DNA of 64,000 nucleotides from an uncultured Clostridium sp. (GTDB lineage Bacteria; Bacillota; Clostridia; TANB77; CAG-508): the NCBI GenBank assembly GCA_900551615.1, contig URWN01000001.1, forward strand, positions 4,295 to 68,294, written 5' to 3'. This document shows, piece by piece, positions 9,074 to 30,368 of this stretch. Within the stretch, counting starts at the first letter, position 1. Every line of letters starts with the position of its first letter. The notes below the pieces were generated by a model. That model saw only the letters and a list, made by a program, of their open reading frames with translations, searched no databases and was not told the origin of the DNA. Position numbers and translations under genes: made by a program.

Positions 9074-9118
9074 TCATACAAATAACTATTTATTTGGACA
9101 ATAATAAGGGAGAAAAAT

Positions 9119-9934: not shown

Positions 9935-9955
9935 ATATAATTTAGGGGGCAAATT

Positions 9956-12900
9956 ATGTTTGATGAAGAAACACTAGAAAAAGTAACAATGGAAATTTTA
10001 CAGAATTTAGAATATAAATGTATAAATGGATATGAGATGCAAAGAACCGACTATTCAAAAGTATTGTTAGAAGAAGACTTAGTTCAAGCAATAGAAAAAA
10101 TAAATAAAGGTATTAAAAATGAACAAGTCCAAGAAGCAGTGAGATTAATTAGAAATTTAGACCACAATAATACAATACTAAACAATAAACAATTCACAAA
10201 GTATTTGTTAGATGGAATTGCTGTGCCTGTTCAAGAAAATGGAGAAACTAAATACAAAACAGTCAAAATACTTGATTTTAATAATATTAATAACAATATA
10301 TTCAAAGCAATAAACCAATACACAATCATTGAACATAGTGAAAAAAGACCAGACATAATTATATTTATAAATGGTATGCCTTTAGTTGTTGTTGAACTAA
10401 AATCAACAGTAAGAGAAGATGTTAAGTTAATAGATGGATATAATCAATTAAAAGGTTATCAAGAAGTACATATACCATCACTATTCTATTATAACCAGTT
10501 TATGATTGTAAGTGATGGAGTACAAGCAAGAGCAGGAACTATCACCAGTCCATGGAGTAGATTTTCGGAATGGAAAAAGGTTGAAGATACAGATGAAGTA
10601 TTAGAGAATATGCCTACCCATAAAACTCTATTCAATGGAATGCTTAGAAAAGATAGATTATTAGATATTATAAGTAATTTTATATTATGGAGTGAAGATA
10701 GTAAAATTTTATCAGCATATCATCAATATTTTGGAGTTAAGAAAGCTATAGCCAGTACAGAAAATGCAATAGATAACAAAACGGGAAAAGCTGGATTACT
10801 TTGGCATACACAAGGAAGTGGAAAGAGCTTTTCAATGGTATTTTATGCTGGGAATATGATAAAAGTATTAAATAATCCAAGTATAGTAGTTGTAACAGAT
10901 AGAAATGACTTAGATAATCAGTTATTTACAACATTTGCAAAATGTTCAGAATATCTAAAACAAGAACCAGTACAAATTGAAAATAGACAGGATTTAAATG
11001 AAAAATTAGAAGGAAGAAAATCAGGTGGAATATTCTTTACCACATTACAAAAATTTGAAGAAGAAACAGGAGTATTTAGCAAAAGAGATGATATTTTAGT
11101 TTTAGTAGATGAAGCACATAGAAGCCATTATGGATTAGATGCAACAATAAAATTTGATAAAACTAAAATGGAAGCATATAAAAAATATGGAACAGCTAAG
11201 TATTTGCATGATGCTTTCCCAAATGCAACATATATTGGATTTACAGGAACGCCTGTTGAAACAAAAGACAGGTCAACAACAAATGTATTTGGAAATATAA
11301 TAGATACTTATGATATGACACAAGCAATTATGGATGGTGCAACGGTGCCAATTATGTATGAATCAAGAATGGCAAGAGTTGGATTAAATCAAAAGATATT
11401 AGATGAGATAGATGATTACTATAATATGCTTGAAACAGAAGAAGGTATTGATGACTATAAAATAGCAGAGTCTAAAAAAGCAATGGCTACAATGAAACAA
11501 ATAATAGAAGATCCAGATAGACTAGAATTGATAGTAAAAGATATTATAAAACATTATGAGGAAATAGAAACAAGTGTGGCTAATAAAGTAATGGTCGTAG
11601 CTTATTCAAGACAATCTGCATTTACAATGTATAATAAATTCTTAGAACTAAGACCAGAATGGAAAAATAAAGTTAATATGATAATAACATCTAATAATAA
11701 AGATGATGAAGAAATGCAAAAAGCAATAGGTTCTAAGAAAGATAAGAAGCAATTAGAAGTAGATTTTAAAGATATGGAGTCTAGCTTCAAAATTGCAATA
11801 GTTGTAGATATGTGGTTAACGGGATTTGACGTGCCTGGACTTGGAACAATGTATATGGACAAACCTATGAAAGCTCATAATTTAATGCAAGCAATTGCAA
11901 GAGTTAACAGAGTTTATAAAGATAAAACTGGTGGTTTAATTGTTGATTACATAGGACTAAAAAGATGGTTGCTAGATGCATTAAAAACATATACAAAGAG
12001 AGACCAAGGAAAGATTGTTGATAATAGTGAATTAGTAAAAGTTTTAATGGATAAAGTAGAATTAATAAGAGATTTATTTAAAGGATTTTACTATGGACAT
12101 TTTGCTACAACAACAGATAGTGATAAATATGAAATTATTATGGCTGGAGCTAACTGGATGCTAAAAACAGAAGAAATTAGAAAAGCATTTATGAGATACA
12201 GTTATGATATAAAAAGTTTATATTCATTATGTACAGGGGAATTATCACAAGAAATTAAAGATGAGATATTGTTCTTCATATCAGTTAGGTCATTTATTTC
12301 AAAGTTATCAGGAGATAAAATAGATGTAAAAGAAATAAATGATAAAGTGGCAAAAATGTTGGAAAGAGCTATCCAAGATGATGAAATGTTACAAATTGGA
12401 GAGGTACATAATAGTAATAGATTAGCAATATTAAGTGACGAAATATTAAATAAACTTGCTAAAATGCAAAAGAAAAATATAGCAGTAGAAGTATTAAATA
12501 GAGCATTAAAAGAATATGTAGAACAAGTTGGAAAAGAAAATGTTGTTTTAATGGAAAAATTCTCAACTAAATTCCAAAAAATAGTAGCATCATATAATGA
12601 AAGAACTAGTGTAGAGGATATAGAAAAAATAATACAAGAAATGATAAATTTAAAAAATGAAATTGAACAGGAATTGAAAGCAGGAAATGAATATAATCTA
12701 TCAACAGAAGAAAAAGCATTTTTTGATGCATTAGGAGATGACCCAGAAGTCAAGGAATTAATGAAGAATGAAACTTTAGTGCAAATTGCTAAAGAATTAG
12801 TTGAAACAGTGAATCAAAATATGACAATTGATTGGGATATTAGAAAAGATGCAAGAGCTAGAATGAGAATTGAAATAAAGAAATTGCTAATAAAATATAA

Positions 12901-12982
12901 TTATCCACCAAACAAAAGTGAAAAAGCAGTACAAACTGTTATAAGACAAGCAGAGCTTAAATGTAAGGGAATGATGGAATAA
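9956..12982 (+). CDS. hsdR: type I R-M restriction/helicase subunit
   Basis: N-terminal nuclease region (IIIFINGMPLVVVELK), Walker A HTQGSGKS, DEAH box VLVDEAHRSH, helicase motif VI QAIARVNR. Confidence 0.95.
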   Translation: MFDEETLEKVTMEILQNLEYKCINGYEMQRTDYSKVLLEEDLVQAIEKINKGIKNEQVQEAVRLIRNLDHNNTILNNKQFTKYLLDGIAVPVQENGETKYKTVKILDFNNINNNIFKAINQYTIIEHSEKRPDIIIFINGMPLVVVELKSTVREDVKLIDGYNQLKGYQEVHIPSLFYYNQFMIVSDGVQARAGTITSPWSRFSEWKKVEDTDEVLENMPTHKTLFNGMLRKDRLLDIISNFILWSEDSKILSAYHQYFGVKKAIASTENAIDNKTGKAGLLWHTQGSGKSFSMVFYAGNMIKVLNNPSIVVVTDRNDLDNQLFTTFAKCSEYLKQEPVQIENRQDLNEKLEGRKSGGIFFTTLQKFEEETGVFSKRDDILVLVDEAHRSHYGLDATIKFDKTKMEAYKKYGTAKYLHDAFPNATYIGFTGTPVETKDRSTTNVFGNIIDTYDMTQAIMDGATVPIMYESRMARVGLNQKILDEIDDYYNMLETEEGIDDYKIAESKKAMATMKQIIEDPDRLELIVKDIIKHYEEIETSVANKVMVVAYSRQSAFTMYNKFLELRPEWKNKVNMIITSNNKDDEEMQKAIGSKKDKKQLEVDFKDMESSFKIAIVVDMWLTGFDVPGLGTMYMDKPMKAHNLMQAIARVNRVYKDKTGGLIVDYIGLKRWLLDALKTYTKRDQGKIVDNSELVKVLMDKVELIRDLFKGFYYGHFATTTDSDKYEIIMAGANWMLKTEEIRKAFMRYSYDIKSLYSLCTGELSQEIKDEILFFISVRSFISKLSGDKIDVKEINDKVAKMLERAIQDDEMLQIGEVHNSNRLAILSDEILNKLAKMQKKNIAVEVLNRALKEYVEQVGKENVVLMEKFSTKFQKIVASYNERTSVEDIEKIIQEMINLKNEIEQELKAGNEYNLSTEEKAFFDALGDDPEVKELMKNETLVQIAKELVETVNQNMTIDWDIRKDARARMRIEIKKLLIKYNYPPNKSEKAVQTVIRQAELKCKGMME

Positions 12983-13008: not shown

Positions 13009-15162
13009 ATGAAAGCAAAAGAGTCAAAATTAGATGATTTATTGTCAAATGTCGATACAAAATTTACTGTCCCAATATTTCAAAGAAAATATAGTTGGGA
13101 TGAAGAACAATGTCATACATTATGGAAGGATTTGCAGAAATTAGGGGAGACATCTTTAAATTCAGGGCACTTTATTGGTTCTATTGTATGTTATCAATTA
13201 AACGATATTGATATGCCTGGTGTAATAAAAGAAAAAATATTAATAGATGGACAACAAAGACTAACGACTCTTTCTATATTGATGATTGCATTGTCTAGAG
13301 CGTATGAAAAATTAGGAGAGAGAACAGCTGCTGATGACATAAAAAATAGATTTATTTTTAATAATAGATATCAGGGAGAAGATAGATTTAAATTAGTACC
13401 AACAGCAGATGATAAGGAGACATATTTCTACATAGCCAAAGGATTAGAAAGCGAATTGATACATCCTTCTGAACAACTTTTAAATAATTTCAATTACTTT
13501 GTAGATTTATTACCTAATACAGTTGAAGAATTAAATAAAATATATATGGCTATTATTAAATTAGATATTGTTTATGTTGTTTTAACAAAAAATCAGGACA
13601 ACCCTCAAATAATATTTGAGAGCATGAATTCAACAGGAAAAGGATTAAGTCAAGGTGATTTATTAAGAAATTATCTATTATTAGATTTAGATACTAAAGT
13701 TCAAAAAAATTTATATGAAAGTTACTGGAGACCAATAGAGCAAGACTTTGGACAACAGGGATATGTAGAAAGATTTGATTTCTTTTTGAGAGATTACCTA
13801 ATTATGATAGAAAAGAAAAATAATATTAGACTTGATCGTGCTTATGAAGAATTTAAAAATTATTATGAAGAGAAAGATTTTTCAAAAGAAGAAATAATAA
13901 AAAGATTAAGAAAGTATTCAAAATATTATTCTACTATATATAATTGTAAAGACAAAGATGCTGAAATTAATAATCTATGGAAACAACTGAAAATACAAAG
14001 AGCTGATACAGTATATCCATTTTTAATGCAAGTATATAATGACTACGAAGAAAGTCAAAAAACTCATGAATTTGAACTTTCAAGAAAAGATTTTATAGAT
14101 ATAGTAAAGGCAATTATTTCGTATGTTTTTAGAAGGTATATATGTGAAATTCCATCAAATTCATTAAATAAAACATTTGCTATATTATATAATTCTGTAG
14201 ATAAGAAAAATTATAGAGTAAGTGTATTAGCAACTTTAATGTTATTAGACTCATATAAAGTATTTCCTAATAATGAAGATTTCAAGAGAGCTTTTGCTAC
14301 AAGAGACATGTATAATACTAGACTGAAAAATTATATATTAGAACAACTTGAAAACTACAACCATCAAAATCCTATTTCAATTAACAATATTGATGTTTCA
14401 ATAGAACATATATTGCCAGAGACTCCAGTTTTAAAATCTTGGTGGCAAGAGGTATTAGGTGATGGATGGAAACAAAAACAAAATGAAAATATGCACAGGA
14501 TAGGAAATTTGACATTAACAAAACCAGTTTATAATTCTGAAATGAGAGATTACAGTTTTAAGAAAAAACTAGCTGTATCAGGAGGAATTAAAGATAGTCA
14601 CTTTATATTAAGTAATTGGATTTTAGATTATGTAGATAATTATGAGAAAGAAAATAAAAAAGATGCAGAATGGAATATTAAACAAATTAATGATAGAAGT
14701 GATGATTTGGCTGATTTAGCAGTAAAGATTTGGGAATATCCAAATTTAAGTGAGGAAGAAATAAAGCCATATAAGTTTTCTAATAAATATGAAAAAGTAT
14801 CTTATGAAAATATAGATCATCTTCCAGAGATGAAGGAAAAAATACAAAAGGTATTTGATAGATTTGATAAAGATATAATGGAATTAGATGATAGAATTAC
14901 TAAAGTAATTACAAAACATTATATAGCTTATAAATATGACTATTCAAATTTCGCTGAAATAATAGTGTACAAAAATTCTCTAAATATATTATTGGATTTA
15001 CCAATTGAATTATTAAAAGATGATAAAAATATAGCTGAAAGTATTACAGTTGGTAGTTGGGGAACAGGAAATATTAGAATAAAAGTATGGGATGATTTAG
15101 ATTATGATTATAAATTAGATTTGATTAGACAATCGTTAGAGAACGAGAAAAATATAAATTAA
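13009..15162 (+). CDS. GmrSD-like DUF262/DUF1524 (ParB-like NTPase + HNH-type nuclease) protein
   Basis: FTVPIFQRKYSW and IDGQQRLTTL (DUF262). C-terminal SIEHILPE ... HRIGNLTL (DUF1524 His-Me finger). 26 nt after hsdR. Confidence 0.85.
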   Translation: MKAKESKLDDLLSNVDTKFTVPIFQRKYSWDEEQCHTLWKDLQKLGETSLNSGHFIGSIVCYQLNDIDMPGVIKEKILIDGQQRLTTLSILMIALSRAYEKLGERTAADDIKNRFIFNNRYQGEDRFKLVPTADDKETYFYIAKGLESELIHPSEQLLNNFNYFVDLLPNTVEELNKIYMAIIKLDIVYVVLTKNQDNPQIIFESMNSTGKGLSQGDLLRNYLLLDLDTKVQKNLYESYWRPIEQDFGQQGYVERFDFFLRDYLIMIEKKNNIRLDRAYEEFKNYYEEKDFSKEEIIKRLRKYSKYYSTIYNCKDKDAEINNLWKQLKIQRADTVYPFLMQVYNDYEESQKTHEFELSRKDFIDIVKAIISYVFRRYICEIPSNSLNKTFAILYNSVDKKNYRVSVLATLMLLDSYKVFPNNEDFKRAFATRDMYNTRLKNYILEQLENYNHQNPISINNIDVSIEHILPETPVLKSWWQEVLGDGWKQKQNENMHRIGNLTLTKPVYNSEMRDYSFKKKLAVSGGIKDSHFILSNWILDYVDNYEKENKKDAEWNIKQINDRSDDLADLAVKIWEYPNLSEEEIKPYKFSNKYEKVSYENIDHLPEMKEKIQKVFDRFDKDIMELDDRITKVITKHYIAYKYDYSNFAEIIVYKNSLNILLDLPIELLKDDKNIAESITVGSWGTGNIRIKVWDDLDYDYKLDLIRQSLENEKNIN

Positions 15163-15256
15163 TACAAATGATAAGCAAGATAAATTATGTATATTGCATG
15201 ATTATTTTGCTTATTATTATTTAATATTCAAAAATATAATTAATAGAGGAAATAAT

Positions 15257-15913
15257 ATGTTAGAACAAACACAAAAATTAAAAGTAATATTTACAAAAAC
15301 TCAAAATGATACTATTAATAGTATCATTGAAAATATAAAAAAAGCAGGAGATAATTATAAAACTATAGAATTATGGAAATTTGATCAATCATTAGGTGGA
15401 ATAGGTGGCTATTGTCAAGGTTGTGATCCAGCCAATTCCAATCCATTTCAAGGTTCAATATATAGAAATGCATATAGATGTTTTCAATATGTTAGAGCAG
15501 ATATAGATATTTTAGATTTAAACTATACAGCAAGAGACATAATAGAAAATTGTGGACATCATTTCGAAGAATCAATAAAAATATATTTACGTTTTCATAA
15601 AAAAATAGAATTTTTGAAAGTTAGGAAGTATCCTTTAGGAAAACTATTAAATTATATATCTGATAGAAATATTTTCGAAAAAAATTTAAGTAAAGAGTTA
15701 AAATTGTTTGTTGATTTGTATAACATATCCAAACACGAAATTCTATCAAATGATGAATTAGATAGAACATTCCATTTAGATGACGCAATAATATGTTATT
15801 TTGCATCAAGGATAATTGGAAAAAAAATACTAATGTTAATAGATAATAATACAGCACAGGGAACATATGAAATAAATTGGGAGAAATATGGAAAAAACAT
15901 AAATAGATTTTAA
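15257..15913 (+). CDS. 218-aa Cys-rich / HEPN-like (DUF4145-like) protein, paralog A
   Basis: Start set at MLEQTQK behind agagga. GGYCQGCDPANSNPFQG block, then helical CGHHFEESIKIYL ... LFVDLYNISKHE. Paralog of 25805-26461. Confidence 0.75.
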   Translation: MLEQTQKLKVIFTKTQNDTINSIIENIKKAGDNYKTIELWKFDQSLGGIGGYCQGCDPANSNPFQGSIYRNAYRCFQYVRADIDILDLNYTARDIIENCGHHFEESIKIYLRFHKKIEFLKVRKYPLGKLLNYISDRNIFEKNLSKELKLFVDLYNISKHEILSNDELDRTFHLDDAIICYFASRIIGKKILMLIDNNTAQGTYEINWEKYGKNINRF

Positions 15914-15937
15914 AAAAGAAATTGGAGTAAAAAAAGA

Positions 15938-16792
15938 ATGATTTATATTACAGGTGACACACATGCTGATTTTTCAAGATTTGAAGAGAATAAATTTCCT
16001 ATACAATCTGAAATGACTAAAAATGATTATATAATTATTTGTGGTGATTTTGGTGGAGTATGGAACTATATAGTAGAGAGTATATATGAAAAGCATTGGC
16101 TAGATTGGTTAAATAATAAAAATTTTACAACTTTATTTGTTGATGGTAATCATGAGAATTTTGAAAGATTTATTAATAACAGAGTTTCATTAAAAATACT
16201 AAGCGATGAAAATTATAAAAAAGAACTATTAAAATTTATAAAGACATTTGATTCTGGAATTGAAGGAATAAGAACTACACCAGATTCAATAGAAGCTGTT
16301 AAAAGTAATAATGGTATTATAGATATTGAAGTTCTTCACAGAGGAGAAAATGGAGAGTTAAAAGCATTAACATTTTATTTAGAATCTAATGGTACGAGAA
16401 AAATGTTTCACTTATTTGATTTCTTTATAGATGCATTAAAAAATGGAATGGTATTATTTGTTGATGAATTAGATGCAAAATTACATCCACTATTAACTAG
16501 ATATATTATTAACTTATTCCATAATAGTCAGACTAATATAGGAAATGGACAGTTAATATATTCAACACATGATACGGTAAACTTAAACAAAGAAACATTT
16601 AGAAGAGATGAAATATGGTTTGCAGAAAAAGATAAAGACGGAATTTCAGAAATATATGCATTATCTGATTATATATTAGAAGATGATAAAAATGCAGGTA
16701 AAAAAGTAAGAAATGATGCAACATACAATAAAGATTATTTAACTGGAAGATATGGTGCTATTCCAGTATTAGAAGATTTTGAGGTATTATAA
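15938..16792 (+). pseudogene. chimeric ORF: metallophosphoesterase N-terminal fragment fused to the C-terminal part of an AAA_21/ABC-type ATPase
   Basis: GDTHADF, CGDFGG and DGNHEN motifs end at about aa 80. Then ESNGTRKMF...FVDELDAKLHP...STHDT...RRDEIWFAEKD follows. There is no Walker A. Confidence 0.6.
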
Positions 16793-17178: not shown

Positions 17179-17196
17179 ATAGGAGAGGTGATAACA

Positions 17197-18237
17197 ATGA
17201 AGAAAAAGAATGTAATAAATTTAATTAAATATCATGCTGAAAATAAAGAACAAGAATTTAGAAATGAAGCATACGAAATCGCCCAAGATTTTCTTAGAGG
17301 TGGAGATGACGAATTAGCTCATTATATAATGTCTATATTAAGTAAGGCTAATATATTTACTCCACAAAGTATCGATGGAACAAGTGGTTATTTTAAATTA
17401 AATAAAAACTATTCAGATACTTTTAAATTACCGCATTCAATAGAAAAAGATATTTTGGGAATAATTAATGCTATTAGGCATGGGGCTGATGTTAACAAGT
17501 TTTTATTTGTGGGGAATCCTGGTACGGGCAAAACAGAAGCTTGTAAGCAAATTGCAAGAATTTTAAATAGAGAATTATATTTTGTTCAATTTGATGAAAT
17601 TGTTGATAGTAAATTAGGGCAAACTTCAAAAAACATTATTAAATTATTTGATGATATAAACGCATTAAAAAAACCTAATGAAACAATAATTCTTTTTGAT
17701 GAATTAGATGCAATTTCATTAGATAGAATAAATTCTAATGATTTAAGAGAAATGGGAAGAGTGACATCTACATTATTAAGAATGTTAGACTCTTTAGATA
17801 GAAGAATCACATTATTTGCAACAACGAATTTATATGAAAAATTTGACAAAGCACTTTTAAGAAGATTTGATTATATAGTGAATTTTAATGAATACTCTAG
17901 AGAAGAATTAATAGAAGTTGCCAATTCAATTTTGACAAGTGAATTAAATAAATATAAAGAATTAAAACAAGATCAAAAATTAGCTAATAAAATATTCAAT
18001 ATGTATAAAAATATTCCATATCCAGGAGATCTCTATAATATTATAAGGAGCACAATTGCATTTAGTGATTTTTCGAAACCTTATGGATATATGTCAAATC
18101 TCTATCAAAAAATAGTAGGAAAGGAAATAAGTAATGATTTAAAAATGTTAAAAGAGGAAGGCTTTTCCGTTAGAGAAATAGAAAAACTAACTGGTATTTC
18201 AAAAAGTAGCGTTTCAAGGGGGATTATAAATGAATGA
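17197..18237 (+). CDS. ietA: AAA+ ATPase with C-terminal HTH (IetA-like)
   Basis: Walker A GNPGTGKT, Walker B ILFDELD, sensor-1 ATTN, RRFD. C-terminal FSVREIEKLTGISKSSVSRGI. Paired with an S8 protease as in the ietAS defence system. Confidence 0.6.
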   Translation: MKKKNVINLIKYHAENKEQEFRNEAYEIAQDFLRGGDDELAHYIMSILSKANIFTPQSIDGTSGYFKLNKNYSDTFKLPHSIEKDILGIINAIRHGADVNKFLFVGNPGTGKTEACKQIARILNRELYFVQFDEIVDSKLGQTSKNIIKLFDDINALKKPNETIILFDELDAISLDRINSNDLREMGRVTSTLLRMLDSLDRRITLFATTNLYEKFDKALLRRFDYIVNFNEYSREELIEVANSILTSELNKYKELKQDQKLANKIFNMYKNIPYPGDLYNIIRSTIAFSDFSKPYGYMSNLYQKIVGKEISNDLKMLKEEGFSVREIEKLTGISKSSVSRGIINE

Positions 18238-20449
18238 TTTATTAGAGTTAAATGGAGTTTTAAACTCATCACCTTTTACTGGAAAAATAATACCATCACT
18301 ACCTAAAGACAAAATTATAAAATCTAGTAATATAGATAAATTTGCAAGTCAGCTTGAAAAATTATATGGTTTTTGGAGTGAAAAGAAATTAATTGATGGA
18401 GCATTAATAAGTGTTTATTACAATAGGATTATTCCTAAGAGTGGAAGGATTGAAAGACTTTTATCATTAGGGTCTGAAAAATCTAATAATTATGTAAGAG
18501 GAGTAAGATTTGATAGTACAGGAAACAAACATATAATTACATACTATATAAAATTGCCTACATTAAAAATTATAATTAATAGGTTTAGAATAATATCTAA
18601 TATAGTACAAGAAATATGTAGTGGAAGTGTATCAAAGGACAATTTTAAACTTATAGACGATGGTCAAAAATTAATAGAAAATAAATATAAAATGAGTAAA
18701 TCAGAAGTAAAAACATTAATAAGAGATTTTTTAGATATAGAAAAATTTGATGTATTTAGAAATCTAGATGTTAATTTAGAAAAAAGTGGGTATATTACAT
18801 TATTTGCAACAGACAAAAATATAGAACAAATAATGAATGATCTTAATATTCCTAATACTGATTATTCATTGTTTGATACAGATACTATTTATACAGGAAA
18901 TAACAGTGTTCTTTCTAAAATAAAATCAGAAGCTGATTATCTTATTTCAATGACAATGCCTGATCTTGCTAAATATGATAACGAAGAATTTAATAGAATC
19001 GATCCATTATTTGATTTTTCAAGTTTTCCAAAGCCAAGTAATGAACCAACAATTGGAGTTATAGATACTCTTTATTCTAAAAATGTATATTTTAATGAAT
19101 GGGTTGATTATCAGGATTTAGTATCTAATGATATAGAGAAAACAGCTGAAAGTTATCGTCATGGTACAGAAGTAGATTCAATTATTGTTGATGGAGGTCA
19201 CATTAATCCACAATGGAACGATAACTGTGGGAATTTTAAAGTTAGACATTTTGGTGTAGCAATAGATGGAGATAATAATTCATTTGTTATTATTTCAAAA
19301 ATTAAAACCATTATAGAAAAAAACCTAGATATAAAAGTATGGAATATTTCCTTAGGTTCAATATATGATACTCAATTATATACTATTTCTCCTGAAGCAG
19401 CTGCATTAGATGAACTACAAAATAAATATAATATAGTATTTATAGTTTCTGGTACAAATATTTCAAATTCTAATCCAAGTGCAGTAAGAATTGGAGCACC
19501 TGCAGATTCTATAAATTCTATAGTAGTAAATTCTGTAGATAAAAATGGGGATATACCTTCATATGCAAGAAAAGGAAAAGTATTATCATTTTTTATAAAA
19601 CCTGATATATGTGCTTTTGGAGGAGATAAAAATGGATATATAAATGTATGCAATTCAACAGGATTAGGAAAGGTTGCTGGTACTTCCTATGCTGCACCAT
19701 GGATTGCTAGAAAAATGTCGTATTTAATTGATAAACTTGGGCTATCACGAGAAATTGCAAAAGCATTGATTATAGATTCAGCATTAAACTTTTCGAAAAT
19801 AAATTATGACATGGAATATTTAGGATATGGAATTGTTCCTACAAAAATAGAAGAAGTATTATATGGAAAAAATGATGAAATTAAATTTTTTATTGAAGGA
19901 TTTTCTACATCATATAATACATATACATATAAGATACCAGTTCCAATAGTTGATAAAAAATATCCATATAATGCAAGAGCTGTAATGTGTTATTTCCCTA
20001 AATGTACAAGAAATCAAGGAGTAGATTATACAAATACAGAATTAAATATATCTTTTGGAAGAATGTACGATAAAGGAATTAAGTCAATAAATAATAATAT
20101 ACAAGATTCTGAAGTACAAGGAATGACTACAGAAAAGGAAGCAAGAGATATATTCAGAAAATGGGATAATGTAAAAATTGCTCTAGATGAAACGAAAAAT
20201 ACAAAAGTTCCAAGAGATACATTTGGTAAAGAAACATGGGGGTTAAAGGTTACTAATAAAGGAAGAATAGGCCTAGAAAGTGACATAAGATTTGGAGTAG
20301 TAATAACTTTAAAGGAAATGTATGGAAAAAATAGGATAAGCGAATTTATTAATAAATGTGAATTAAATGGCTGGCTTGTGAATAAGATTAATATTGATAA
20401 CCAATTAGATATATATGTATCAGCTGAAGAAGAACTTGAATTTGAATAA
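18230..20449 (+). CDS. ietS: subtilisin-like S8 serine peptidase (IetS-like)
   Basis: Overlaps the ATPase stop by 8 nt. Catalytic triad motifs GVIDT, HGTEV, GTSYAAPW. Has a long N-terminal and a long C-terminal extension. Confidence 0.6.
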   Translation: MNDLLELNGVLNSSPFTGKIIPSLPKDKIIKSSNIDKFASQLEKLYGFWSEKKLIDGALISVYYNRIIPKSGRIERLLSLGSEKSNNYVRGVRFDSTGNKHIITYYIKLPTLKIIINRFRIISNIVQEICSGSVSKDNFKLIDDGQKLIENKYKMSKSEVKTLIRDFLDIEKFDVFRNLDVNLEKSGYITLFATDKNIEQIMNDLNIPNTDYSLFDTDTIYTGNNSVLSKIKSEADYLISMTMPDLAKYDNEEFNRIDPLFDFSSFPKPSNEPTIGVIDTLYSKNVYFNEWVDYQDLVSNDIEKTAESYRHGTEVDSIIVDGGHINPQWNDNCGNFKVRHFGVAIDGDNNSFVIISKIKTIIEKNLDIKVWNISLGSIYDTQLYTISPEAAALDELQNKYNIVFIVSGTNISNSNPSAVRIGAPADSINSIVVNSVDKNGDIPSYARKGKVLSFFIKPDICAFGGDKNGYINVCNSTGLGKVAGTSYAAPWIARKMSYLIDKLGLSREIAKALIIDSALNFSKINYDMEYLGYGIVPTKIEEVLYGKNDEIKFFIEGFSTSYNTYTYKIPVPIVDKKYPYNARAVMCYFPKCTRNQGVDYTNTELNISFGRMYDKGIKSINNNIQDSEVQGMTTEKEARDIFRKWDNVKIALDETKNTKVPRDTFGKETWGLKVTNKGRIGLESDIRFGVVITLKEMYGKNRISEFINKCELNGWLVNKINIDNQLDIYVSAEEELEFE

Positions 20450-21795: not shown

Positions 21796-21868
21796 AAATT
21801 ACATTTAATAATAGGTTTTGTTGTTGCTTTAAATTATGTATGATATAAAAAATAAAGTGGAGGGAAAA

Positions 21869-23722
21869 ATGAATAAAGAATTAGAAAAAAAATTAAAGGA
21901 ACATATAAGAGAACAAAACCAAGAAATGTACATAACAGATGAGGAAATCTGTAAATTAATATTTAGATATATCAAAAAAGAAAATACAGAATATGCAGTA
22001 TTAATCAATGGTAAATGGGGTGCAGGAAAAACATTTTTTGTAAAAAATAGTTTGAAAACAAATGTACAGAAAGAAATAAATAAAACTAGTAGATATAAAG
22101 GAATAATATATATATCATTATATGGAATAAAAGATTCAACCCAACTAGAGAACAAACTAATATATTCCATAATAGAAAACAATATATTAGGTAATAAAGA
22201 AGGAAAAACCTCAAAAATATTAATAAATGGAGCAAAAACTTATCTTAATTCTTTAGAAAGAAAAGATTCTATAATGGATGTAATAAAAATGTTTCAAGAA
22301 ATATCTAAATATATTATTATTTTTGATGATTTAGAAAGATGTATGATTTCTATTACAGAACTATTAGGGTATATAAATGAACTGGTAGAACATAAAAATG
22401 TGAAAACTATATTAATTGCAAATGAAGAAAAAATGTCAGAAACAAAAGAATTATATCAAAATCAAGTATATTTTGAAATAAAAGAAAAATTAATAGGGGA
22501 AGTTATATATTATAATCCAGATATGGAAAAAATTCTAGATTATATATGTGATAAAGAAAAAGAACAAATAGCTTCAAAAATAATAAAAAATAATAAATAT
22601 GAAATAATTGAAACAATGCAAAAATTAAAGTATAAAAATATAAGAACACTTAAAATTTGTATTTCTAAATTTAAAATAATAATAGAAAAAATGGAAGAAG
22701 TAAAATCAATATATAAAAATTATGATGAACTTACTTATAATAAATTACTAAATAATATATTAATATATTTATTACATGTAACTATTATGTATAAAGAAAA
22801 TATAAAATTATATGATTGGAGTAATTTATTAGGCTCATTCGGATTAATAAATTTAACTATAAGAAATGATAAAATAGAAATATTAGGATTTAAATTTGTT
22901 GATAAACTAGTCCAATATTCAATTATAGATTCAAAAGATATAAAGGAAATATTAGAACTATACAACAAAAAAGATCAGAATAATATATATGGAAAAGGAA
23001 GTCCATTTGATGTTGTAACAAATTTTTTTGGGAAAAGCGATAACAAAGTTGAAGAGGCACTCAAACAAATGAAAAATGAAATAAAAGACAATATATATAT
23101 GATAGATGTATATAGTAAAATTTTGTGTTATCTACTAGAAATTAAATGGGCTGGATATGATGAAAAAATAATAAAAGATATTATTAAACTTATGGAATAT
23201 AATATAAAAAATAATAAAAATAGTTGTACTATTGAATTTATACCATTCACTTTAGGATATAATACAGAAAGACCAGGATATTATGATATACTTAAAAAAT
23301 GGGAAAAATATGATAGTGAAAGAGTTATTGAAAATCAAAAAGAAAAAATAAAAGAAATTTTAAATAAAACTAATTGGGGAACAAATTTTAAAGAATACTG
23401 TGAAAAAAATAAAAATGAATTTAAGAGAAATAAAAGTTTTTTCTCAAGTATAGATGATAAAGAATTGATAGAGAATATTAAATACAGTGACTCTCAAAAT
23501 ATATTGGAATTTATAAGAGGAATAAATACAGTTTATAATCTTAAATATATTTCAAAAGATCAAAAAGAATTAAGAGATTATTATATAGGAGATATTGATA
23601 GCATAATAAGGATAAAAAAAGAAATTGAAAAAATAAAAGATATAAAGATGGAAAAAAGTAAGAAATATCTTATAAATAAATTACTGGAAATATTACAAGA
23701 CTGGATAAATGCGTTAAAATAA
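21869..23722 (+). CDS. KAP-family P-loop NTPase
   Basis: INGKWGAGKTFF Walker A and IIIFDDLERC Walker B, typical of KAP NTPases. Start set behind ggaggg. Confidence 0.75.
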   Translation: MNKELEKKLKEHIREQNQEMYITDEEICKLIFRYIKKENTEYAVLINGKWGAGKTFFVKNSLKTNVQKEINKTSRYKGIIYISLYGIKDSTQLENKLIYSIIENNILGNKEGKTSKILINGAKTYLNSLERKDSIMDVIKMFQEISKYIIIFDDLERCMISITELLGYINELVEHKNVKTILIANEEKMSETKELYQNQVYFEIKEKLIGEVIYYNPDMEKILDYICDKEKEQIASKIIKNNKYEIIETMQKLKYKNIRTLKICISKFKIIIEKMEEVKSIYKNYDELTYNKLLNNILIYLLHVTIMYKENIKLYDWSNLLGSFGLINLTIRNDKIEILGFKFVDKLVQYSIIDSKDIKEILELYNKKDQNNIYGKGSPFDVVTNFFGKSDNKVEEALKQMKNEIKDNIYMIDVYSKILCYLLEIKWAGYDEKIIKDIIKLMEYNIKNNKNSCTIEFIPFTLGYNTERPGYYDILKKWEKYDSERVIENQKEKIKEILNKTNWGTNFKEYCEKNKNEFKRNKSFFSSIDDKELIENIKYSDSQNILEFIRGINTVYNLKYISKDQKELRDYYIGDIDSIIRIKKEIEKIKDIKMEKSKKYLINKLLEILQDWINALK

Positions 23723-23838: not shown

Positions 23839-25704
23839 ATGAAACAAAAAGAAGGAATATGGTGGACAATCAACCAAGAAAAAGTAGCAGGAAAACTAGA
23901 AATAACAGAAGAAAACAAAATAAGTCTAATAACATACGGAAAACTATACGACACAAACATAATATACGGATTTGCAGAAGGAGAAAAAATAACACTAGTA
24001 GACGTAGAACTAGACAGAACAGACATATACACAAACAAAATCCACAAAGACGAAACAGAAAAAGAAGACCCAAACGAAGACACAGAGCTAAAATACTGCA
24101 CGTACAAATATACAGCAGATATGGCCATATTTGGGCACATATATGAAAGAAAAGGAGACATAAGAATAAAAGAAGTCTCACTATATTACACGAATTTAGA
24201 CAAATGGATAGACTGGCCAATCGAAATGCCAGAAGTATCATCAAAGGACAACGAAGTATATTTAAAAATCAGAAAATTCAAAGAGAAAAAAATAAAAACA
24301 GAAAGATTTGACATATCAATAAGAAATCCATACTTGATCGAAAAAATGGACTACAAAATGAAAATTCACAATCAAGTAGAAATAAACATTCAAAATATAA
24401 GAAATGAGTATATTAAAACAATACAAGGCATTGTACAATGTTTACAATTCTTTTTAATATTATGTACAGGAGACAACATTAATGTAGAAAAAATAAAAGC
24501 AACAGATTTTTATGATAGGGATGTAGAAATCATACTTGGATATGGAAAAAGTAACTATGAAAATAGAAGTATAATAAAAGACATCGTAAAATATAAAGAT
24601 ATTGAAGGTAGCCTAGACAACATTATAAAAAATTGGATGAAAGTATATGAAGAAAACGAACTATTAATGGTAAATTTTATAAAACTTCAAACAACAGAAG
24701 ATATACTGATGAGTGAATACATGAACTTAATGAGTGCAATAGATAGTTTGCATTTACTAGTGATACATAAAGAGCAAAGTAAGGCTCCTTGCGCAGAGAT
24801 TTTAAAAAAACTATTAAGAGAAACTAATTTTATATTAAATCTTTCAGAAAAAGAGATAGAAGAATTAGCCATAAAAGTAAAGGATATCAGAAGATATTTT
24901 GTACATTCAAACAAAACCCAAAAACAAATAGTTCATAGCAATATATCAATTATAAAAAGCATAATGAGTGTTCTTATAGAAGCTATAAGAAGTAGAATTA
25001 TGGTAGAAATAGGAATTGATCAAAGAATATTAGAAACATATTACAAAAAAATAGAAAACTTAAAAAAGGTAAAATATGATATTGTAAACAATATTAATGA
25101 AGATGAGAGAATAAGGGCAGAAAAAGCAGAAAAGGGAGGAAAAATAATGAATCCATTATCAAGAAAAGACAAAGAAAATATAGCAGAGCTAAATGCTTTG
25201 ATGGGAACAAGATATAGAGAAAGTGAATATGATTTGGAAAATAGCAAAGATCTAATAGAAGCAATAGAAAATACAACAGCAGAATTCATGGATTATATCA
25301 ATTATTGGGGAGAAATAAGCACTATAATAGAAAATTTTGATCAAAGTATAGAAGTATTTCATCCAGAAAAATGGTTCAATATGTCAAAAACAGGAAAAAC
25401 GGAAAACGGACTAGTGGATGAAACAATATCAAATTTATATGATGTATCAGATAACATGTATGATTTAGCAAATAATGCAGAAGAAAGATGCAAAGATTTA
25501 TGGAAATTTTTGTTGTTGGGAGATAATAAAGAAGCTCAAACATATTTTGTAGGTAACATATCTATGTACAGTAAGGAAAAATTAAGTGCGGCTATAGAGT
25601 ATGTTATAGAAAATATATTTGATGTAGAGTACGAAAATCAAGTTCAAAATGATGCTCAGAATTTCTCAAAGGGAATAAAACAATATTTAGAAAGAAAATT
25701 ATAA
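23839..25704 (+). CDS. ApeA-like HEPN-domain protein
   Basis: N-terminus GIWWTINQEKVAGKLEITEENKISLITYG resembles the ApeA N-terminal domain. Rx4H HEPN motif RRYFVH at 24889-24906. Confidence 0.5.
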   Translation: MKQKEGIWWTINQEKVAGKLEITEENKISLITYGKLYDTNIIYGFAEGEKITLVDVELDRTDIYTNKIHKDETEKEDPNEDTELKYCTYKYTADMAIFGHIYERKGDIRIKEVSLYYTNLDKWIDWPIEMPEVSSKDNEVYLKIRKFKEKKIKTERFDISIRNPYLIEKMDYKMKIHNQVEINIQNIRNEYIKTIQGIVQCLQFFLILCTGDNINVEKIKATDFYDRDVEIILGYGKSNYENRSIIKDIVKYKDIEGSLDNIIKNWMKVYEENELLMVNFIKLQTTEDILMSEYMNLMSAIDSLHLLVIHKEQSKAPCAEILKKLLRETNFILNLSEKEIEELAIKVKDIRRYFVHSNKTQKQIVHSNISIIKSIMSVLIEAIRSRIMVEIGIDQRILETYYKKIENLKKVKYDIVNNINEDERIRAEKAEKGGKIMNPLSRKDKENIAELNALMGTRYRESEYDLENSKDLIEAIENTTAEFMDYINYWGEISTIIENFDQSIEVFHPEKWFNMSKTGKTENGLVDETISNLYDVSDNMYDLANNAEERCKDLWKFLLLGDNKEAQTYFVGNISMYSKEKLSAAIEYVIENIFDVEYENQVQNDAQNFSKGIKQYLERKL

Positions 25705-25804
25705 ATTAGCAAAGAAGTCATAATACAAATATTCAAAATATATGTAAAGAAATAATGTCAAAATGATGTTAGAATATGATCATAAGTTAGAAAGGATTAT
25801 AGAT

Positions 25805-26461
25805 ATGTTAGAACAAACACAAAAATTAAAAGTAATATTTAGTGAAAAACAATTAAATACTATTAAAAATATAATTGAACAAATAGAAAAAGAAGGACAA
25901 GAATACAAAACAATAAATTTATGGAAATTTGACCAATCTATTGGAGGGATAGGTGGATATTGTCAAGGATGTAATCCAGCTCGTTCCAATCCTTTTCAAG
26001 GGACAGAATTTAGAAATACATATAGATGTTTACAATATATCAGAAGTGATATAGATATATTAAATATTAATTATACAGCAAGAGATATAATAGAAAATTG
26101 TGGACATCACTTTGAAGAATCAATAAAAATATATTTAAAGAGAAATTATAAACTTATTTGGATAAAGACTAGCAGATATCCATTAGGAAAATTATTAAAT
26201 TATATAGTTGATAAAAATATATTTGAAAAAAATATTACAAATGAATTAAAATTGTTTGTTGATTTATATAATATATCAAAACATGTAATATTATCAAATG
26301 ATGAACTTGATAGGACTTTTCATGCTGATGATGCTATTATTTGTTATTTTGCTTGTAGAATAGTAGGTAAGAAAATATTATTAAAGATAGATGAAAAAAC
26401 AGAAAAGGAAAAATATGAAATTGATTGGGACAAATATGGCATAAAAATTAATAGATTTTAA
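25805..26461 (+). CDS. 218-aa Cys-rich / HEPN-like (DUF4145-like) protein, paralog B
   Basis: Same length as 15257-15913. 161/218 identical residues in an ungapped hand alignment. The first 36 nt are identical. Confidence 0.75.
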   Translation: MLEQTQKLKVIFSEKQLNTIKNIIEQIEKEGQEYKTINLWKFDQSIGGIGGYCQGCNPARSNPFQGTEFRNTYRCLQYIRSDIDILNINYTARDIIENCGHHFEESIKIYLKRNYKLIWIKTSRYPLGKLLNYIVDKNIFEKNITNELKLFVDLYNISKHVILSNDELDRTFHADDAIICYFACRIVGKKILLKIDEKTEKEKYEIDWDKYGIKINRF

Positions 26462-26470
26462 TTAATTTAG

Positions 26471-26500
26471 ATACAACTTTTGAGCAAGTTGTATTTTTTT
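26471..26500 (+). terminator. rho-independent terminator
   Basis: atacaactt / aagttgtat stem, 6-nt loop, then TTTTTT. Confidence 0.75.
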
Positions 26501-26582
26501 GTCGAAATTTATAATTTTCTACAAGTTTCGACAAATTTTGCGATAAAAATATGTTACTTTTTTATACAAGGGGGATATTTTT

Positions 26583-27473
26583 ATGAATAATTCTATTGAT
26601 TTTTATAGTTATAGAGGAAATATTGTTTTTTCAGACCAAATGACAATATTTAATTTAGGATTGGAAAACAATTCTGAAACTAAAAATAAGATTTTTAATA
26701 AATTTTTTGAAGAATTAAAGAATAGAACAAAATTAGATTCAAAATTTAATAAAAGAGTTTATTATTTGATTTTTATAAATCAATATGATTCTATAGTTCA
26801 CTGTCAATTAGCTAGACAAAGAGAATATAATAAATATGAAATGACAGAAGAAAAAATTATAGGTAAAAAGGATAAAGACTATCCATATGTTAATATTTTT
26901 ATTGAACTATATTCACAAAAAATTTTAATAGAATCAAATGAAACAATATTTGAAAACTATAATACATGTAGTGATGTAATACAAAATATAATGAATAAAC
27001 ATATAAATATCAAAGATACAAATATAAGTATAAATCCCATATTAAAAGAAGATGAATTTTGGGATTTTTTTAAAGATGATAATAAAGTTAGTATGATAGA
27101 TTTTTCATTATGCGTTCCTAATTTATTTGATGCAGACAACGATGCAGTAGAGTTTTTAAAAGAATCTAACAAAAATGTAGGGGCAAGCAATGTATCATTA
27201 AAATTTTCCAATAGTAAGGGTGAATTGAAACCTAATAAAAAAGGAATAGATTCATTTATAAAATATATTAGTGCAGGAGGAGGAAAATGGAAATTAATTT
27301 ATAAAAATAAACAGGGGAAAAGCAAAAGAGTAAATAGTAAAAGTAAGAGTATAAAAATAAGTATACCAGTATCAAGAGAACTATTAAGCAATACTTTAAC
27401 TATTAAAGATATAAATATTATAAAAAATGAAATGAAGAAAATAGAAACTATGGATAAATTTAAGGAGGAATAA
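26583..27473 (+). CDS. hypothetical soluble protein (296 aa)
   Basis: RBS aagggggat upstream. No recognisable motif. Its last codons carry the AAGGAGG of the next gene. Confidence 0.7.
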   Translation: MNNSIDFYSYRGNIVFSDQMTIFNLGLENNSETKNKIFNKFFEELKNRTKLDSKFNKRVYYLIFINQYDSIVHCQLARQREYNKYEMTEEKIIGKKDKDYPYVNIFIELYSQKILIESNETIFENYNTCSDVIQNIMNKHINIKDTNISINPILKEDEFWDFFKDDNKVSMIDFSLCVPNLFDADNDAVEFLKESNKNVGASNVSLKFSNSKGELKPNKKGIDSFIKYISAGGGKWKLIYKNKQGKSKRVNSKSKSIKISIPVSRELLSNTLTIKDINIIKNEMKKIETMDKFKEE

Positions 27474-27474
27474 A

Positions 27475-27957
27475 GTGAAAAAGAGAATTATAATAATTTG
27501 CATTATTTTAAGTAGTGTAATATTTGCATTTACAAATAATTCTTTTATAGTAAGTGCTAAAGACATAATACCATTTCTTTTTACGTTACTTGGATTATGT
27601 TTAACAGCATATACATTTATATATTCACCAATAACAGAAATTCTAAAGAAGAATAATAAAATCAATGATATTGATAAAAATAAAAGTTTAGATAAACTAT
27701 TAAAAAGTTTTGAAGAAGACATGTTATGCATTTTTTTCTTAACAATTACAATAATATGTATAGATTTTATTAAGAATTTTGATATACCATTAATGAAAGA
27801 TACTACTAATATAAATTTAGAAATAATATCAATAATATCATTAAAGAAATTTATAGTTAATTTTATAATAGCTCTATCAGCAAGCTTATCATTTTATGCA
27901 TTATATGATCTGATGAAAGCTACATTTAAGATATTAAGAAGTAGTTTAGATAAGTAA
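27475..27957 (+). CDS. small integral membrane protein (about 4 TM helices)
   Basis: GTG start 1 nt after the upstream TAA. Hydrophobic segments IIIICIILSSVIFAF, FLFTLLGLCLTAYTFIY, LCIFFLTITIICIDF, FIVNFIIALSASLSFYAL. Confidence 0.7.
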   Translation: MKKRIIIICIILSSVIFAFTNNSFIVSAKDIIPFLFTLLGLCLTAYTFIYSPITEILKKNNKINDIDKNKSLDKLLKSFEEDMLCIFFLTITIICIDFIKNFDIPLMKDTTNINLEIISIISLKKFIVNFIIALSASLSFYALYDLMKATFKILRSSLDK

Positions 27958-28054: not shown

Positions 28055-29011
28055 ATGGATGAAGAAATAAGAGATTTAAATTATGTTTTTAATGAAATGC
28101 CAATCTATAGCAGAGAGACATTTAATATTTTATGTAAAAAAGAATCACAAGGAATATATAAAATAGATAGAAAAGAAATAATTAGATTTTTAAAATATAT
28201 AAATACGAGTAGTAAAAAAATTATTACAAATTGTGTGTGGTGTAATAAAGAGTTTTCATTCAATTATTGTAAAAATTTATATTCAATTGAATATTCTGAA
28301 CATGCAAAAGAGGTTAGTTACATAAGAATAGCTTTTTTAGGTGAGGATGGGTTGTATATAGATTTGAAGGATGAAGATATATGTGGACAAACTAATAAAA
28401 ATATTTTGGATAAAGATTTAATTGAAAAAAACTATTATATTTCATACTATATAAATTGTAATAATATGCCAAAACATATATATGGATTATATCTATTTAT
28501 AAGAGTTCAAAGAGATAAAATAATTGTAACCAAAATAGGACAATATCCATCAATGTTATCTGTAAAAGGTTTTGATTTCGATAAATATAAAAAACAATTA
28601 AAAAAATATAATGCATATGAAGACTATAAAAATGCAGACTTATCAATGGCAAATAATTTTTATGCAGGTGCATATACATATTTAAGAAGAGTTTATGAAA
28701 AACAATTGAATTTTTATATAGAAAAAGATAAACTCCAACTCATTGATAATAAAACAGAAACAAAAATAAAAGCTATTAAAGAAAATTTTGATCCTAGAAT
28801 ACATGAACATCTAAATAATCTATATAGTATATTAAGTATTGGAATACACGAACTGGATGAGGAAGAAAGTAAAGATTATTATGAATATTTAAAAGCAATG
28901 ATTGATATGCAGTTGCAATTTGAAAAAATGAAAGATGAAGAAGAAAAACAGTCAAAATCATTGAACACAAAAATTTCAAATATAATAACAAAATTAAAAC
29001 AAAGAAGATAA
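28055..29011 (+). CDS. hypothetical protein with CxxC N-terminal region and DUF4145/HEPN-like helical C-terminus
   Basis: CVWCNKEFSFNYC, then YLRRVYEKQLNFYIE ... LNNLYSILSIGIHELDEEE, which resembles the two conserved helices of DUF4145-type domains. Confidence 0.55.
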   Translation: MDEEIRDLNYVFNEMPIYSRETFNILCKKESQGIYKIDRKEIIRFLKYINTSSKKIITNCVWCNKEFSFNYCKNLYSIEYSEHAKEVSYIRIAFLGEDGLYIDLKDEDICGQTNKNILDKDLIEKNYYISYYINCNNMPKHIYGLYLFIRVQRDKIIVTKIGQYPSMLSVKGFDFDKYKKQLKKYNAYEDYKNADLSMANNFYAGAYTYLRRVYEKQLNFYIEKDKLQLIDNKTETKIKAIKENFDPRIHEHLNNLYSILSIGIHELDEEESKDYYEYLKAMIDMQLQFEKMKDEEEKQSKSLNTKISNIITKLKQRR

Positions 29012-29405: not shown

Positions 29406-30368
29406 ATGTATAGAAAAAGTGAACTACTAGAAATAATTATGAAAAAATACAACATACATGAAAACAATAAAATTAGTTATGATGAAATACAAGAAATATC
29501 AAAAAAAGAAAAAATAGAAATAAAAGATTTGTTATATTTACTAGAAATAAGGTATAATACAGCATATAAATTAAAAAAAGAGAAACAAAAATATACAAAA
29601 CTAAAATTCAACAATTATGAAGAAATAAAAAACAAAAAAATAATAGCAAAAGGGAAAATACATACGGAAGAGTTTTTTAAATTAAAAAGTAAATTACAAT
29701 TAAAAAGTTATACATTAATAAGAATGTTAGGAATATCAACATATGAATATAACAAAGCAAAAAAGGGAAAATTAGAAGAAATAAAAGTTACAGATATAAA
29801 AACAAAACATATTGTAAAACTAATAAAATTAGATTTTAAATACATTAATAAATATACAAAAGGATATTACACAAAAGAAAAATTACAAAACATTTGTAGA
29901 GAAAGAGATATCTCATTAGAACAATTTTTAAAATATTATAATAAAAATCAAAAACATTATAAGTTTAACAAACTCGCAATAGAACAAAGCAAAAAAGGAT
30001 TGTGGATAGGAGAAGATATAAGAATACCAGATGAATTTATAGATAAAAATTATGAAAAGATAGCAAAGTATTTAAGAAATATAACAAACAAATACAGTAA
30101 AATAAATGAATGGCAAATTTATAAAGAAGATATAATAGATGAAACAAGCATTAGTATGTACGAAAAATGTGGGGAAATAGTAAAAAAATTTTATTTTGAC
30201 ACGAAATTGACAATGAATATTATCATTGCAAAAGGAAAATATATTATGTACAATTTATATAGAAAAAAATATAAAAAAAATAATATATATTATGAAGAAT
30301 ATGACAAAAAACTATTAGATCACACTTCATTTTTAAGAGATAATAGATATAATCCACAATTATTTTAA
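29406..30368 (+). CDS. hypothetical lysine-rich protein
   Basis: 320-aa ORF with A-rich core-like composition. Contains HTH-like segments (SYTLIRMLGISTYEYNKAKKG). No family recognised. Confidence 0.6.
   Translation: MYRKSELLEIIMKKYNIHENNKISYDEIQEISKKEKIEIKDLLYLLEIRYNTAYKLKKEKQKYTKLKFNNYEEIKNKKIIAKGKIHTEEFFKLKSKLQLKSYTLIRMLGISTYEYNKAKKGKLEEIKVTDIKTKHIVKLIKLDFKYINKYTKGYYTKEKLQNICRERDISLEQFLKYYNKNQKHYKFNKLAIEQSKKGLWIGEDIRIPDEFIDKNYEKIAKYLRNITNKYSKINEWQIYKEDIIDETSISMYEKCGEIVKKFYFDTKLTMNIIIAKGKYIMYNLYRKKYKKNNIYYEEYDKKLLDHTSFLRDNRYNPQLF

Follow-up and report, generated by a model that had tools for sequence, protein, structure and literature searches.

RexAB of phage lambda is the oldest known phage-exclusion system; in the prevailing model, it stops an infection through a shutdown of the membrane of the infected cell. 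RexA shares a weak HHpred signal for DUF4747 with three actinophage proteins, Sbash gp30, CarolAnn gp44 and Butters gp30 (in the last of them with a probability of 69% and E = 140), each of the four is paired with a membrane protein of four transmembrane segments (4-TM), and for the actinophage pairs a defence against heterotypic phages has been demonstrated (PMC6426596, PMC6426606, PMC7542560). In a study from 2026, furthermore, the immune operons under CapK/CapS control include a 'DUF4747/CarolAnn prophage system' (PMC13373217). The locus considered here lies in a stretch of 64,000 nucleotides (nt) from an uncultured Clostridium sp. (assembly GCA_900551615.1, contig URWN01000001.1, positions 4,295 to 68,294 of the forward strand), which is referred to as the window and whose first letter is position 1. 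Two consecutive genes in it, A and B, encode a soluble protein of 296 amino acids (aa) and a 4-TM protein of 160 aa, and we read them, with moderate confidence, as a Rex-like two-component phage-exclusion (abortive-infection) module. This reading draws on the architecture of the pair, on its recurrence in 22 of 22 loci, on the order of the predicted domains, on the DUF4747 tags of some homologues, on the genomic context and on the fold matches. The pair would then most likely be no novel type of system but a distant, unannotated branch of the known Rex-like kind (a DUF4747 protein plus a 4-TM protein).

Gene A occupies positions 26583-27473 of the forward strand, from an ATG start to a TAA stop at 27471-27473, and is preceded by a putative ribosome-binding site (GGGGGA, 26570-26575). 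Gene B follows on the same strand at 27475-27957, starts with GTG and encodes a predicted inner-membrane protein. Only one nucleotide, an A at 27474, separates the stop of the first gene from the start of the second, and the Shine-Dalgarno sequence of B (AAGGAGG, 27462-27468) falls within the last three sense codons of A, 6 nt before the GTG. No secondary structure is predicted by RNA folding in the junction region, and, judged from the sequence, the arrangement has the textbook geometry of translational coupling. The open reading frames (ORFs) and the junction are thus exactly as a preliminary description of this locus had reported them. The pair has a G+C content of 21%, against 27% for the window.

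A collection of 5.8 billion proteins contains 101 homologues of A, the best at E = 1e-178, and 104 of B, the best at E = 1e-88, and because of these homologue sets both ORFs can be taken as genuine genes. A protein identical to A is found on at least 23 metagenome contigs, with the same local gene order in the four places inspected. An exhaustive profile search extends the A family to 1018 clusters at E <= 1e-3, or 586 at E <= 1e-10 (counted as representatives at 50% identity), whose members are nearly all 270-310 aa long and are named by their sources as 'hypothetical protein' only.

The pairing itself was followed through 22 independent loci, comprising 13 species-representative metagenome-assembled genomes (MAGs) from the gut (Clostridia, Bacilli, 'Tenericutes' and Ruminococcus), one JGI metagenome locus and further homologues, among them homologues of 39-46% identity, distant members of 20-23%, an Escherichia coli prophage and a Vibrio phage of the Vinavirales. 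In every complete case (22 of 22), the A homologue is directly followed, on the same strand, by an ORF of 151-181 aa with four hydrophobic segments, with a gap between the two genes that ranges from -29 to +19 nt; at one locus (L037) this partner is present even though the gene caller had overlooked it. The partner evolves faster than A while its length and topology are retained, and the B profile aligns to the Vibrio partner colinearly over 146 columns, below significance. None of the genes that surround the pair in the window (ApeA, a KAP NTPase, and ORFs of 232, 318 and 320 aa) co-occurs with it in the 13 genome loci. As no flanking gene travels with the pair, the unit consists of exactly two genes, and it moves independently of its neighbours. 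ApeA and the flanking genes of 232, 318 and 320 aa, which had been considered as further parts of the module, were rejected on the same ground.

At two of the MAG loci (L008, 1908-2792, and L016, 8001-8856) the B homologue is intact but the A homologue is interrupted: tblastn matches it over the full length, and the ORFs there measure only 212 and 118 aa. This could reflect a pseudogene or else a fault of the assembly; if the interruptions are real, B is tolerated without A.

The relatives of the pair are found in the company of defence and mobile genes, so that the homologues are not concentrated in non-defence contexts. Among 75 flanking genes at the 13 genome loci, the commonest Pfam families are the C5 DNA methylase (5), the NgoPII endonuclease (3), the serine recombinase (3) and the N6/N4 methylase (2), to which are added DpnII, a Dam-type methylase, a MutH/Sau3AI-like nuclease, RloB and a YhcG PDDEXK nuclease. 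In the JGI metagenome, a homologue 55% identical to A adjoins an Abi_2 gene and a serine recombinase. A distant member (P0300) lies in the immunity region of a temperate phage, with RecT/Erf, Gam and an antirepressor nearby. There, a Cro-like helix-turn-helix (HTH) gene on the opposite strand is followed by a CI-like HTH repressor, an ImmA-type M78 protease, the A homologue, an overlapping gene for a 174-aa 4-TM protein and a serine recombinase, an arrangement that matches both lambda cI-rexA-rexB and genes 45-44-43 of CarolAnn.

Two further branches are carried by phages. In E. coli, the genes for a protein of 298 aa and an overlapping 154-aa 4-TM protein (L017, 8001-9336; CP099174, 873070-874405) belong to an e14-like prophage and are flanked by its integrase gene, which they follow directly, and by icd. 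This pair is present in 32 of 5426 complete genomes, 99.6-99.9% identical among them, and on 12 IMG/VR viral contigs, and in all 32 carrier genomes RefSeq annotates it as 'hypothetical protein' twice. In Vibrio phage 10N.261.45.F7_PE002B (PQ189321; L002, 2178-3543), a 13-kb tectivirus-like element of the Vinavirales, proteins of 297 aa and 161 aa (the latter 4-TM, its gene overlapping the former) are encoded near a lambda-repressor-like gene, and therefore the module also occurs outside tailed phages. Scans of viral contigs returned nothing for the clade of the window and nothing for P0300, and a plasmid search returned no homologues of A, the Vibrio homologue matching only one E. coli record of chromosomal type. 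The window's clade appears to be cargo of chromosomal islands.

Regarding the structure of A, the AlphaFold2 (AF2) model built on a 28-sequence alignment (pLDDT 84.6, pTM 0.83) comprises an N-terminal domain of eight strands plus helices (approximately residues 1-140), a second domain with a beta-alpha-beta-alpha-beta-alpha-beta succession (146-241) and a C-terminal helical segment (247-296). Its top matches in the PDB are the RdgC structures 2owl and 2owy, at E = 2.4e-3 and a probability of 0.82, with a TM-score of about 0.25, a root-mean-square deviation (rmsd) of 15 Å and 6% identity, which are weak values. Among predicted viral structures, four uncharacterised phage proteins of gut viromes (277-314 aa) match the fold at E = 1e-14 to 3e-11, with TM-scores of up to 0.69, and a phage 'recombination-associated protein' is found among the weaker matches. 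By its model, the fold of A is predicted to be RdgC-like, even if A has no match to the RdgC sequence family in Pfam or NCBIfam and the A1 profile of the family retrieves nothing among PDB sequences. Conservation throughout the wide family is seen at Q112 (in a QKxLIE strand), F159 (EFW), P179-N180 (PNLF) and the glycines 232-234 (GGGxW); these residues form no obvious catalytic constellation, in agreement with the preliminary description, which recognised no catalytic motif in A.

The model of B (pLDDT 79, pTM 0.72) consists of four long helices (3-18, 28-59, 63-99 and 123-158), which accompany hydrophobic segments at approximately 5-23, 31-49, 84-102 and 120-144. From the distribution of charges, the topology is predicted to be N-in/C-in. 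On the cytoplasmic side, helices 2 and 3 are prolonged into a charged hairpin (50-83), and a short beta-hairpin is found in the second outer loop. Several polar residues are conserved within the transmembrane segments (T37, T44, Y46, T47, K124, N129 and Y144-D145), and where the fourth segment approaches the cytoplasm the partners retain an acidic residue (D145 within an LYD motif, glutamate in the proteobacterial versions). The polar set (T37, T44/Y46/T47, K124, N129 and D145) would fit a pore or gating function. Against BFVD, the model has one notable match, an unnamed viral protein of 170 aa (TM-score 0.62, E = 0.05).

On these grounds, A is proposed as a cytoplasmic sensor or DNA-binding component and B as the membrane effector. 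A would be a cytoplasmic, probably dimeric protein of RdgC/RexA fold that senses a cue of infection (phage DNA, a protein-DNA intermediate or a phage protein), and B would be made in a fixed proportion to it through translational coupling. Once activated, A would engage the cytoplasmic helical hairpin of B, which would then depolarise or permeabilise the membrane, and the resulting collapse of the membrane potential, of ATP and of the synthesis of macromolecules would abort the infection. Along with this scheme we infer homology to RexA/RexB, binding of DNA, an interaction between A and B, membrane depolarisation and a defence phenotype.

How does the Rex-like reading stand when the pair is set against the known families? 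Even at permissive thresholds, A and B were both without a match in Pfam-A, NCBIfam, PADLOC-DB v2.0.0 and PHROGs, and the pair coincides with no named system in these collections. A had no match to the RexA model (PF15969 / phrog_12654) at E <= 1 in Pfam or PHROGs, with lambda RexA itself scoring 1e-97 and 6e-163, respectively; likewise, B had no match to the RexB model (PF15968 / phrog_14878). When 28 close and 43 distant members of the A family were scanned with Pfam, nothing relevant appeared, and the CarolAnn/Sbash-type proteins are assigned to separate PHROGs. By sequence, then, the pair falls outside the RexA/RexB and CarolAnn families as these are currently modelled. DefenseFinder would not detect it, since the detection of RexAB there builds on Pfam models.

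Several of these results have to be counted against kinship with Rex. In the Pfam copy used for the scans, the models of RexA, RexB and DUF4747 match neither A, nor B, nor any of the 71 family members; for DUF4747, A and these members give nothing even at E <= 1-10. The family profiles (28, 43 and 138 sequences) assign RexA, RexB, gp44 and gp43 scores of 0 bits or less in HMMER (hmmsearch --max), and in hhalign they give non-significant probabilities of 0.2-1.4% for the same four proteins (0.3% for the family profile against the RexA profile and 0.2% for the B profile against RexB). CarolAnn gp44 in particular scores below 0 bits with the profiles A1 and A2 and reaches 0.3-0.4% in hhalign. The hhalign alignments do run colinearly, and one and the same core (DYPYVNIF...LIES...INPI...EFW) is matched in them again and again, which is not counted as evidence. 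The structural comparisons add that the RexA structure 8TWQ is outside the top 50 Foldseek matches of the A model, that the RdgC match of this model is as weak as described above, and that the B model fails to retrieve RexB in the fold search of BFVD. Furthermore, the Rex mechanism itself, in which RexB acts as an ion channel, has the standing of an old model, not of an established fact, and the link to DUF4747 depends on precomputed tags of three homologues only.

These tags (PF15931.11) belong to P0082, P0100 and P0101, all homologues of A, with E <= 1e-5 for the latter two, which align to 98-99% of the length of A at 39% identity (E ~1e-55; loci L033 and L025, respectively). They could not be reproduced in our Pfam scan at E <= 10, in which the CarolAnn gp44/43, Vibrio and E. 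coli pairs had no PF15931 match either. The DUF4747 model was probably rebuilt between Pfam releases, because the version suffixes differ (x.10 against x.11, as in RexA PF15969.10 and.11). A would at best belong to the DUF4747 superfamily by transitivity, below threshold. The suggestion of the preliminary description that DUF4747-type families be examined was nonetheless the right lead, though A itself gives no direct match. Its proposal of a candidate new abortive-infection module holds as regards a self-contained, coupled module in a defence and mobile context; 'new' is too strong a word, because architecture, fold and context point to the known kind of RexAB, Sbash 30-31 and CarolAnn 44-43.

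According to a possible, if rather doubtful, alternative, the family of at least 1000 clusters, with its RdgC fold and obligate 4-TM partner, would be an independent, widespread and unnamed defence family of Firmicutes, Proteobacteria and their phages. Rex and the actinophage systems would be peripheral to it or convergent with it, and its mechanism would be unlike that of classical Rex, for example a membrane-anchored capture of incoming DNA, or an interference with recombination-dependent phage replication, instead of suicide by an ion channel.

A non-abortive mode of action in the manner of Kiwa, the strongest of the rival readings but one that we consider unlikely, would assign the two proteins other roles: B would be a membrane sensor or anchor at the site of phage entry, and A, held at the membrane, would bind the DNA of incoming phages non-specifically and block replication or recombination without killing the cell. 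The fold of A speaks for it, since RdgC, which it resembles, forms a ring-shaped dimer that binds DNA and modulates RecA, as do the non-specific DNA binding of RdgC, RexA and KwaB, all as dimers, that of RexA homologues, and the conserved basic residues in the N-terminal domain of A (R11, R58, R78, K34, K84 and K113). Kiwa itself is a precedent, as it combines a 4-TM protein with a soluble DNA-binding dimer of approximately 310 aa and is found in defence islands. However, the gene order is reversed (KwaA is upstream), the Rossmann-like plus DUF4868 organisation of KwaB and the cytoplasmic beta-barrel of KwaA are not seen in A and B, PADLOC gives no match to KwaA or KwaB, and Kiwa structures are missing from the top PDB matches of A. 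Membership of the pair in Kiwa proper was also considered, and rejected given the lack of PADLOC or Pfam Kwa matches, the opposite gene order and the differing predicted folds.

It seems improbable that the pair is an addiction (toxin-antitoxin-like) module that stabilises the island or the prophage, in which B would be toxic, with a holin- or Hok-like effect, A its neutraliser, and defence secondary. The tight translational coupling, which fixes the stoichiometry, and the constant presence of the module on mobile or variable DNA would suit such a function. The two MAG loci in which only A is interrupted hint that B is tolerated by itself and so weigh as much against the idea as for it. Nevertheless, these loci speak against B as a constitutive toxin in need of A, a two-domain RdgC-like protein of 300 aa is far larger than typical antitoxins, and the positions of the family, in a phage immunity region and in defence islands, match those of exclusion genes. 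Many abortive-infection systems are formally toxin-antitoxin-like, which blurs the distinction between the two classes. Finally, a regulator of the life cycle of mobile elements, with A modulating the lysogeny/excision switch or recombination and B antagonising or sequestering A, is very unlikely: RexA does bias the lambda switch to lysis independently of RexB, RexB antagonises RexA and distant members of the family do lie in phage immunity regions, but close relatives of the pair are not found on viral contigs, and in the chromosomal islands that harbour these relatives and the window's own copy a switch modulator would have no target, because no repressor/Cro switch or integrase is beside them.

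The genomic setting of the pair in the window is that of a defence island, as initially described, which spans approximately 6.4-30.4 kb. It begins with the hsdM, hsdS and hsdR genes of a type I restriction-modification system (6373-12982), which enclose, between hsdS and hsdR, an ORF of 271 aa with no Pfam match (9119-9934). GmrSD (13009-15162) follows, and then a 239-aa ORF without assignment and, after it (15194-16792 for both), a protein of 284 aa that combines AAA_21 and metallophosphatase (15938-16792) and is unusually short for such a fusion. Next come an AAA+ ATPase (349 aa) overlapping an S8 subtilase (739 aa; 17188-20449), a PRiA4_ORF3 protein, a KAP NTPase (21836-23722) and ApeA (23839-25704), recognised by PADLOC PDC-S58 and Pfam ApeA_NTD1. 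The layout of the ATPase and protease genes presumably resembles that of the 'Iet' system of Gao 2020. Immediately upstream of the pair is an ORF of 232 aa with no family assigned (25763-26461; 218 aa as called in metagenome records), and downstream there are ORFs of 318 aa, with a faint DUF4145 signal only (28055-29011), and of 320 aa, with a weak N-terminal HTH (29406-30368). These three ORFs are separate, uncharacterised cargo of the island. Housekeeping genes (an acyltransferase, a diacylglycerol kinase and a bile-salt hydrolase) resume at 30545, and the bile-salt hydrolase is 94% identical to its counterparts in Clostridia MAGs from the Hadza gut, which places the window in a human-gut lineage of Clostridia.

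As for the transcriptional boundaries, the 232-aa gene ends in a terminator-like hairpin on the forward strand (26469-26503), made of an 11-bp stem (26469-26496) and a run of seven U, which isolates the pair from that gene. Its folding free energy is -9.4 kcal/mol (z = -2.59; 4 of 200 shuffles were equally good), and it was also recovered as an inverted repeat (I8); with only two G-C pairs, the stem falls short of the three that the consensus scan for terminators calls for, and so it was passed over there. Of the terminator-bounded slot that had been claimed for the pair, it is this upstream side that stands, as no convincing terminator was found by RNA folding downstream of B (z = -1.1).

A second inverted repeat, TTGTCGAAA-N18-TTTCGACAA (26498-26535; 16-nt arms, 88% complementary), lies between the terminator and the ribosome-binding site of A. 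It is the one match in the window, with none expected in 100 shuffles, and it may be an operator for some regulator or a leader hairpin. Its right arm overlaps the -35 box of a putative forward-strand promoter of the pair (26528-26555; -35 TCGACA, a 16-nt spacer, -10 TATGTT), which has 9 of 12 matches in the promoter scan and is by itself not significant. An element ATCGACAA(A/T)TTT, followed by an extended -10, is kept upstream of the A homologues in L010-L014, which share the TCGACA -35-like sequence with the window. Another conserved element is seen approximately 25-55 nt upstream of the start of the A homologue in L004, L005, L007, L008 and L009. It consists of a 10-12-bp hairpin (AAAGAAAAGTAG...CTACTTTTCTTT) and a T-rich sequence, placed between an extended -10 (TGTGATAAAAT) and a GGGGG ribosome-binding site. 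By its appearance, this element could control the pair as an attenuator or terminator in the leader.

Which consequences would a Rex-like nature of the pair have? Current catalogues depend on the narrow Pfam models of RexA and RexB and for this reason report RexAB almost exclusively in Proteobacteria. From the window, the outline of a much larger family emerges, with Rex architecture and an RdgC/RexA-like predicted fold. If members of this family are shown to defend, Rex-like immunity would reach the Firmicutes of the gut and their phages, a model now missing could be supplied to the tools for defence annotation, and comparative material would become available to learn how a soluble sensor of RdgC fold controls a 4-TM effector. 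The E. coli prophage orthologue, present in complete genomes of that species, offers a tractable and ready experimental model.

The comparison with the described systems, in conclusion, shows likenesses of organisation accompanied by a divergence of sequence. RdgC (2OWL, 2OWY), the best structural match of the A model over its full length, if a weak one, is a two-domain alpha/beta protein of approximately 300 aa that forms DNA-binding dimers. It is nonetheless a stand-alone housekeeping protein without a membrane partner, whereas the gene for A has a membrane gene beside it in all cases, on mobile DNA. 2OWL is likewise the nearest solved structure of lambda RexA.

In lambda, RexA (279 aa, soluble) and RexB (144 aa, 4-TM) are encoded by adjacent genes on the same strand and in the same order as A and B, and the domains of RexA (1-139, 143-234 and 248-279) correspond to those predicted for A. 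Both families are carried on prophages and other variable DNA. Between them, however, HMMER detects no sequence similarity and hhalign remains below 1% probability. RexAB is found by DefenseFinder in Proteobacteria only, while the host of A and B is a Firmicute, and rexAB follows the repressor gene, whereas the pair in the window is in a chromosomal defence island with no repressor beside it.

The actinophage pairs (Sbash gp30/gp31, CarolAnn gp44/gp43 and Butters gp30/gp31) differ from A and B in that their soluble proteins are longer (337-372 aa) and without significant similarity to A, and their hosts are high-GC actinobacteria. Their defence phenotype has been shown experimentally. They are expressed lysogenically from prophages, and a prophage location is shared by the E. 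coli, Vibrio and P0300 branches of the A family, but not by the window's copy. Yet they too consist of a soluble protein (in their case with a DUF4747-type signal), followed by an abutting or overlapping 4-TM protein (165-178 aa), and they form an autonomously expressed unit, as A and B do. Moreover, Sbash gp31 has a functionally important central cytoplasmic loop, of which a conserved equivalent is present in the cytoplasmic hairpin of B.

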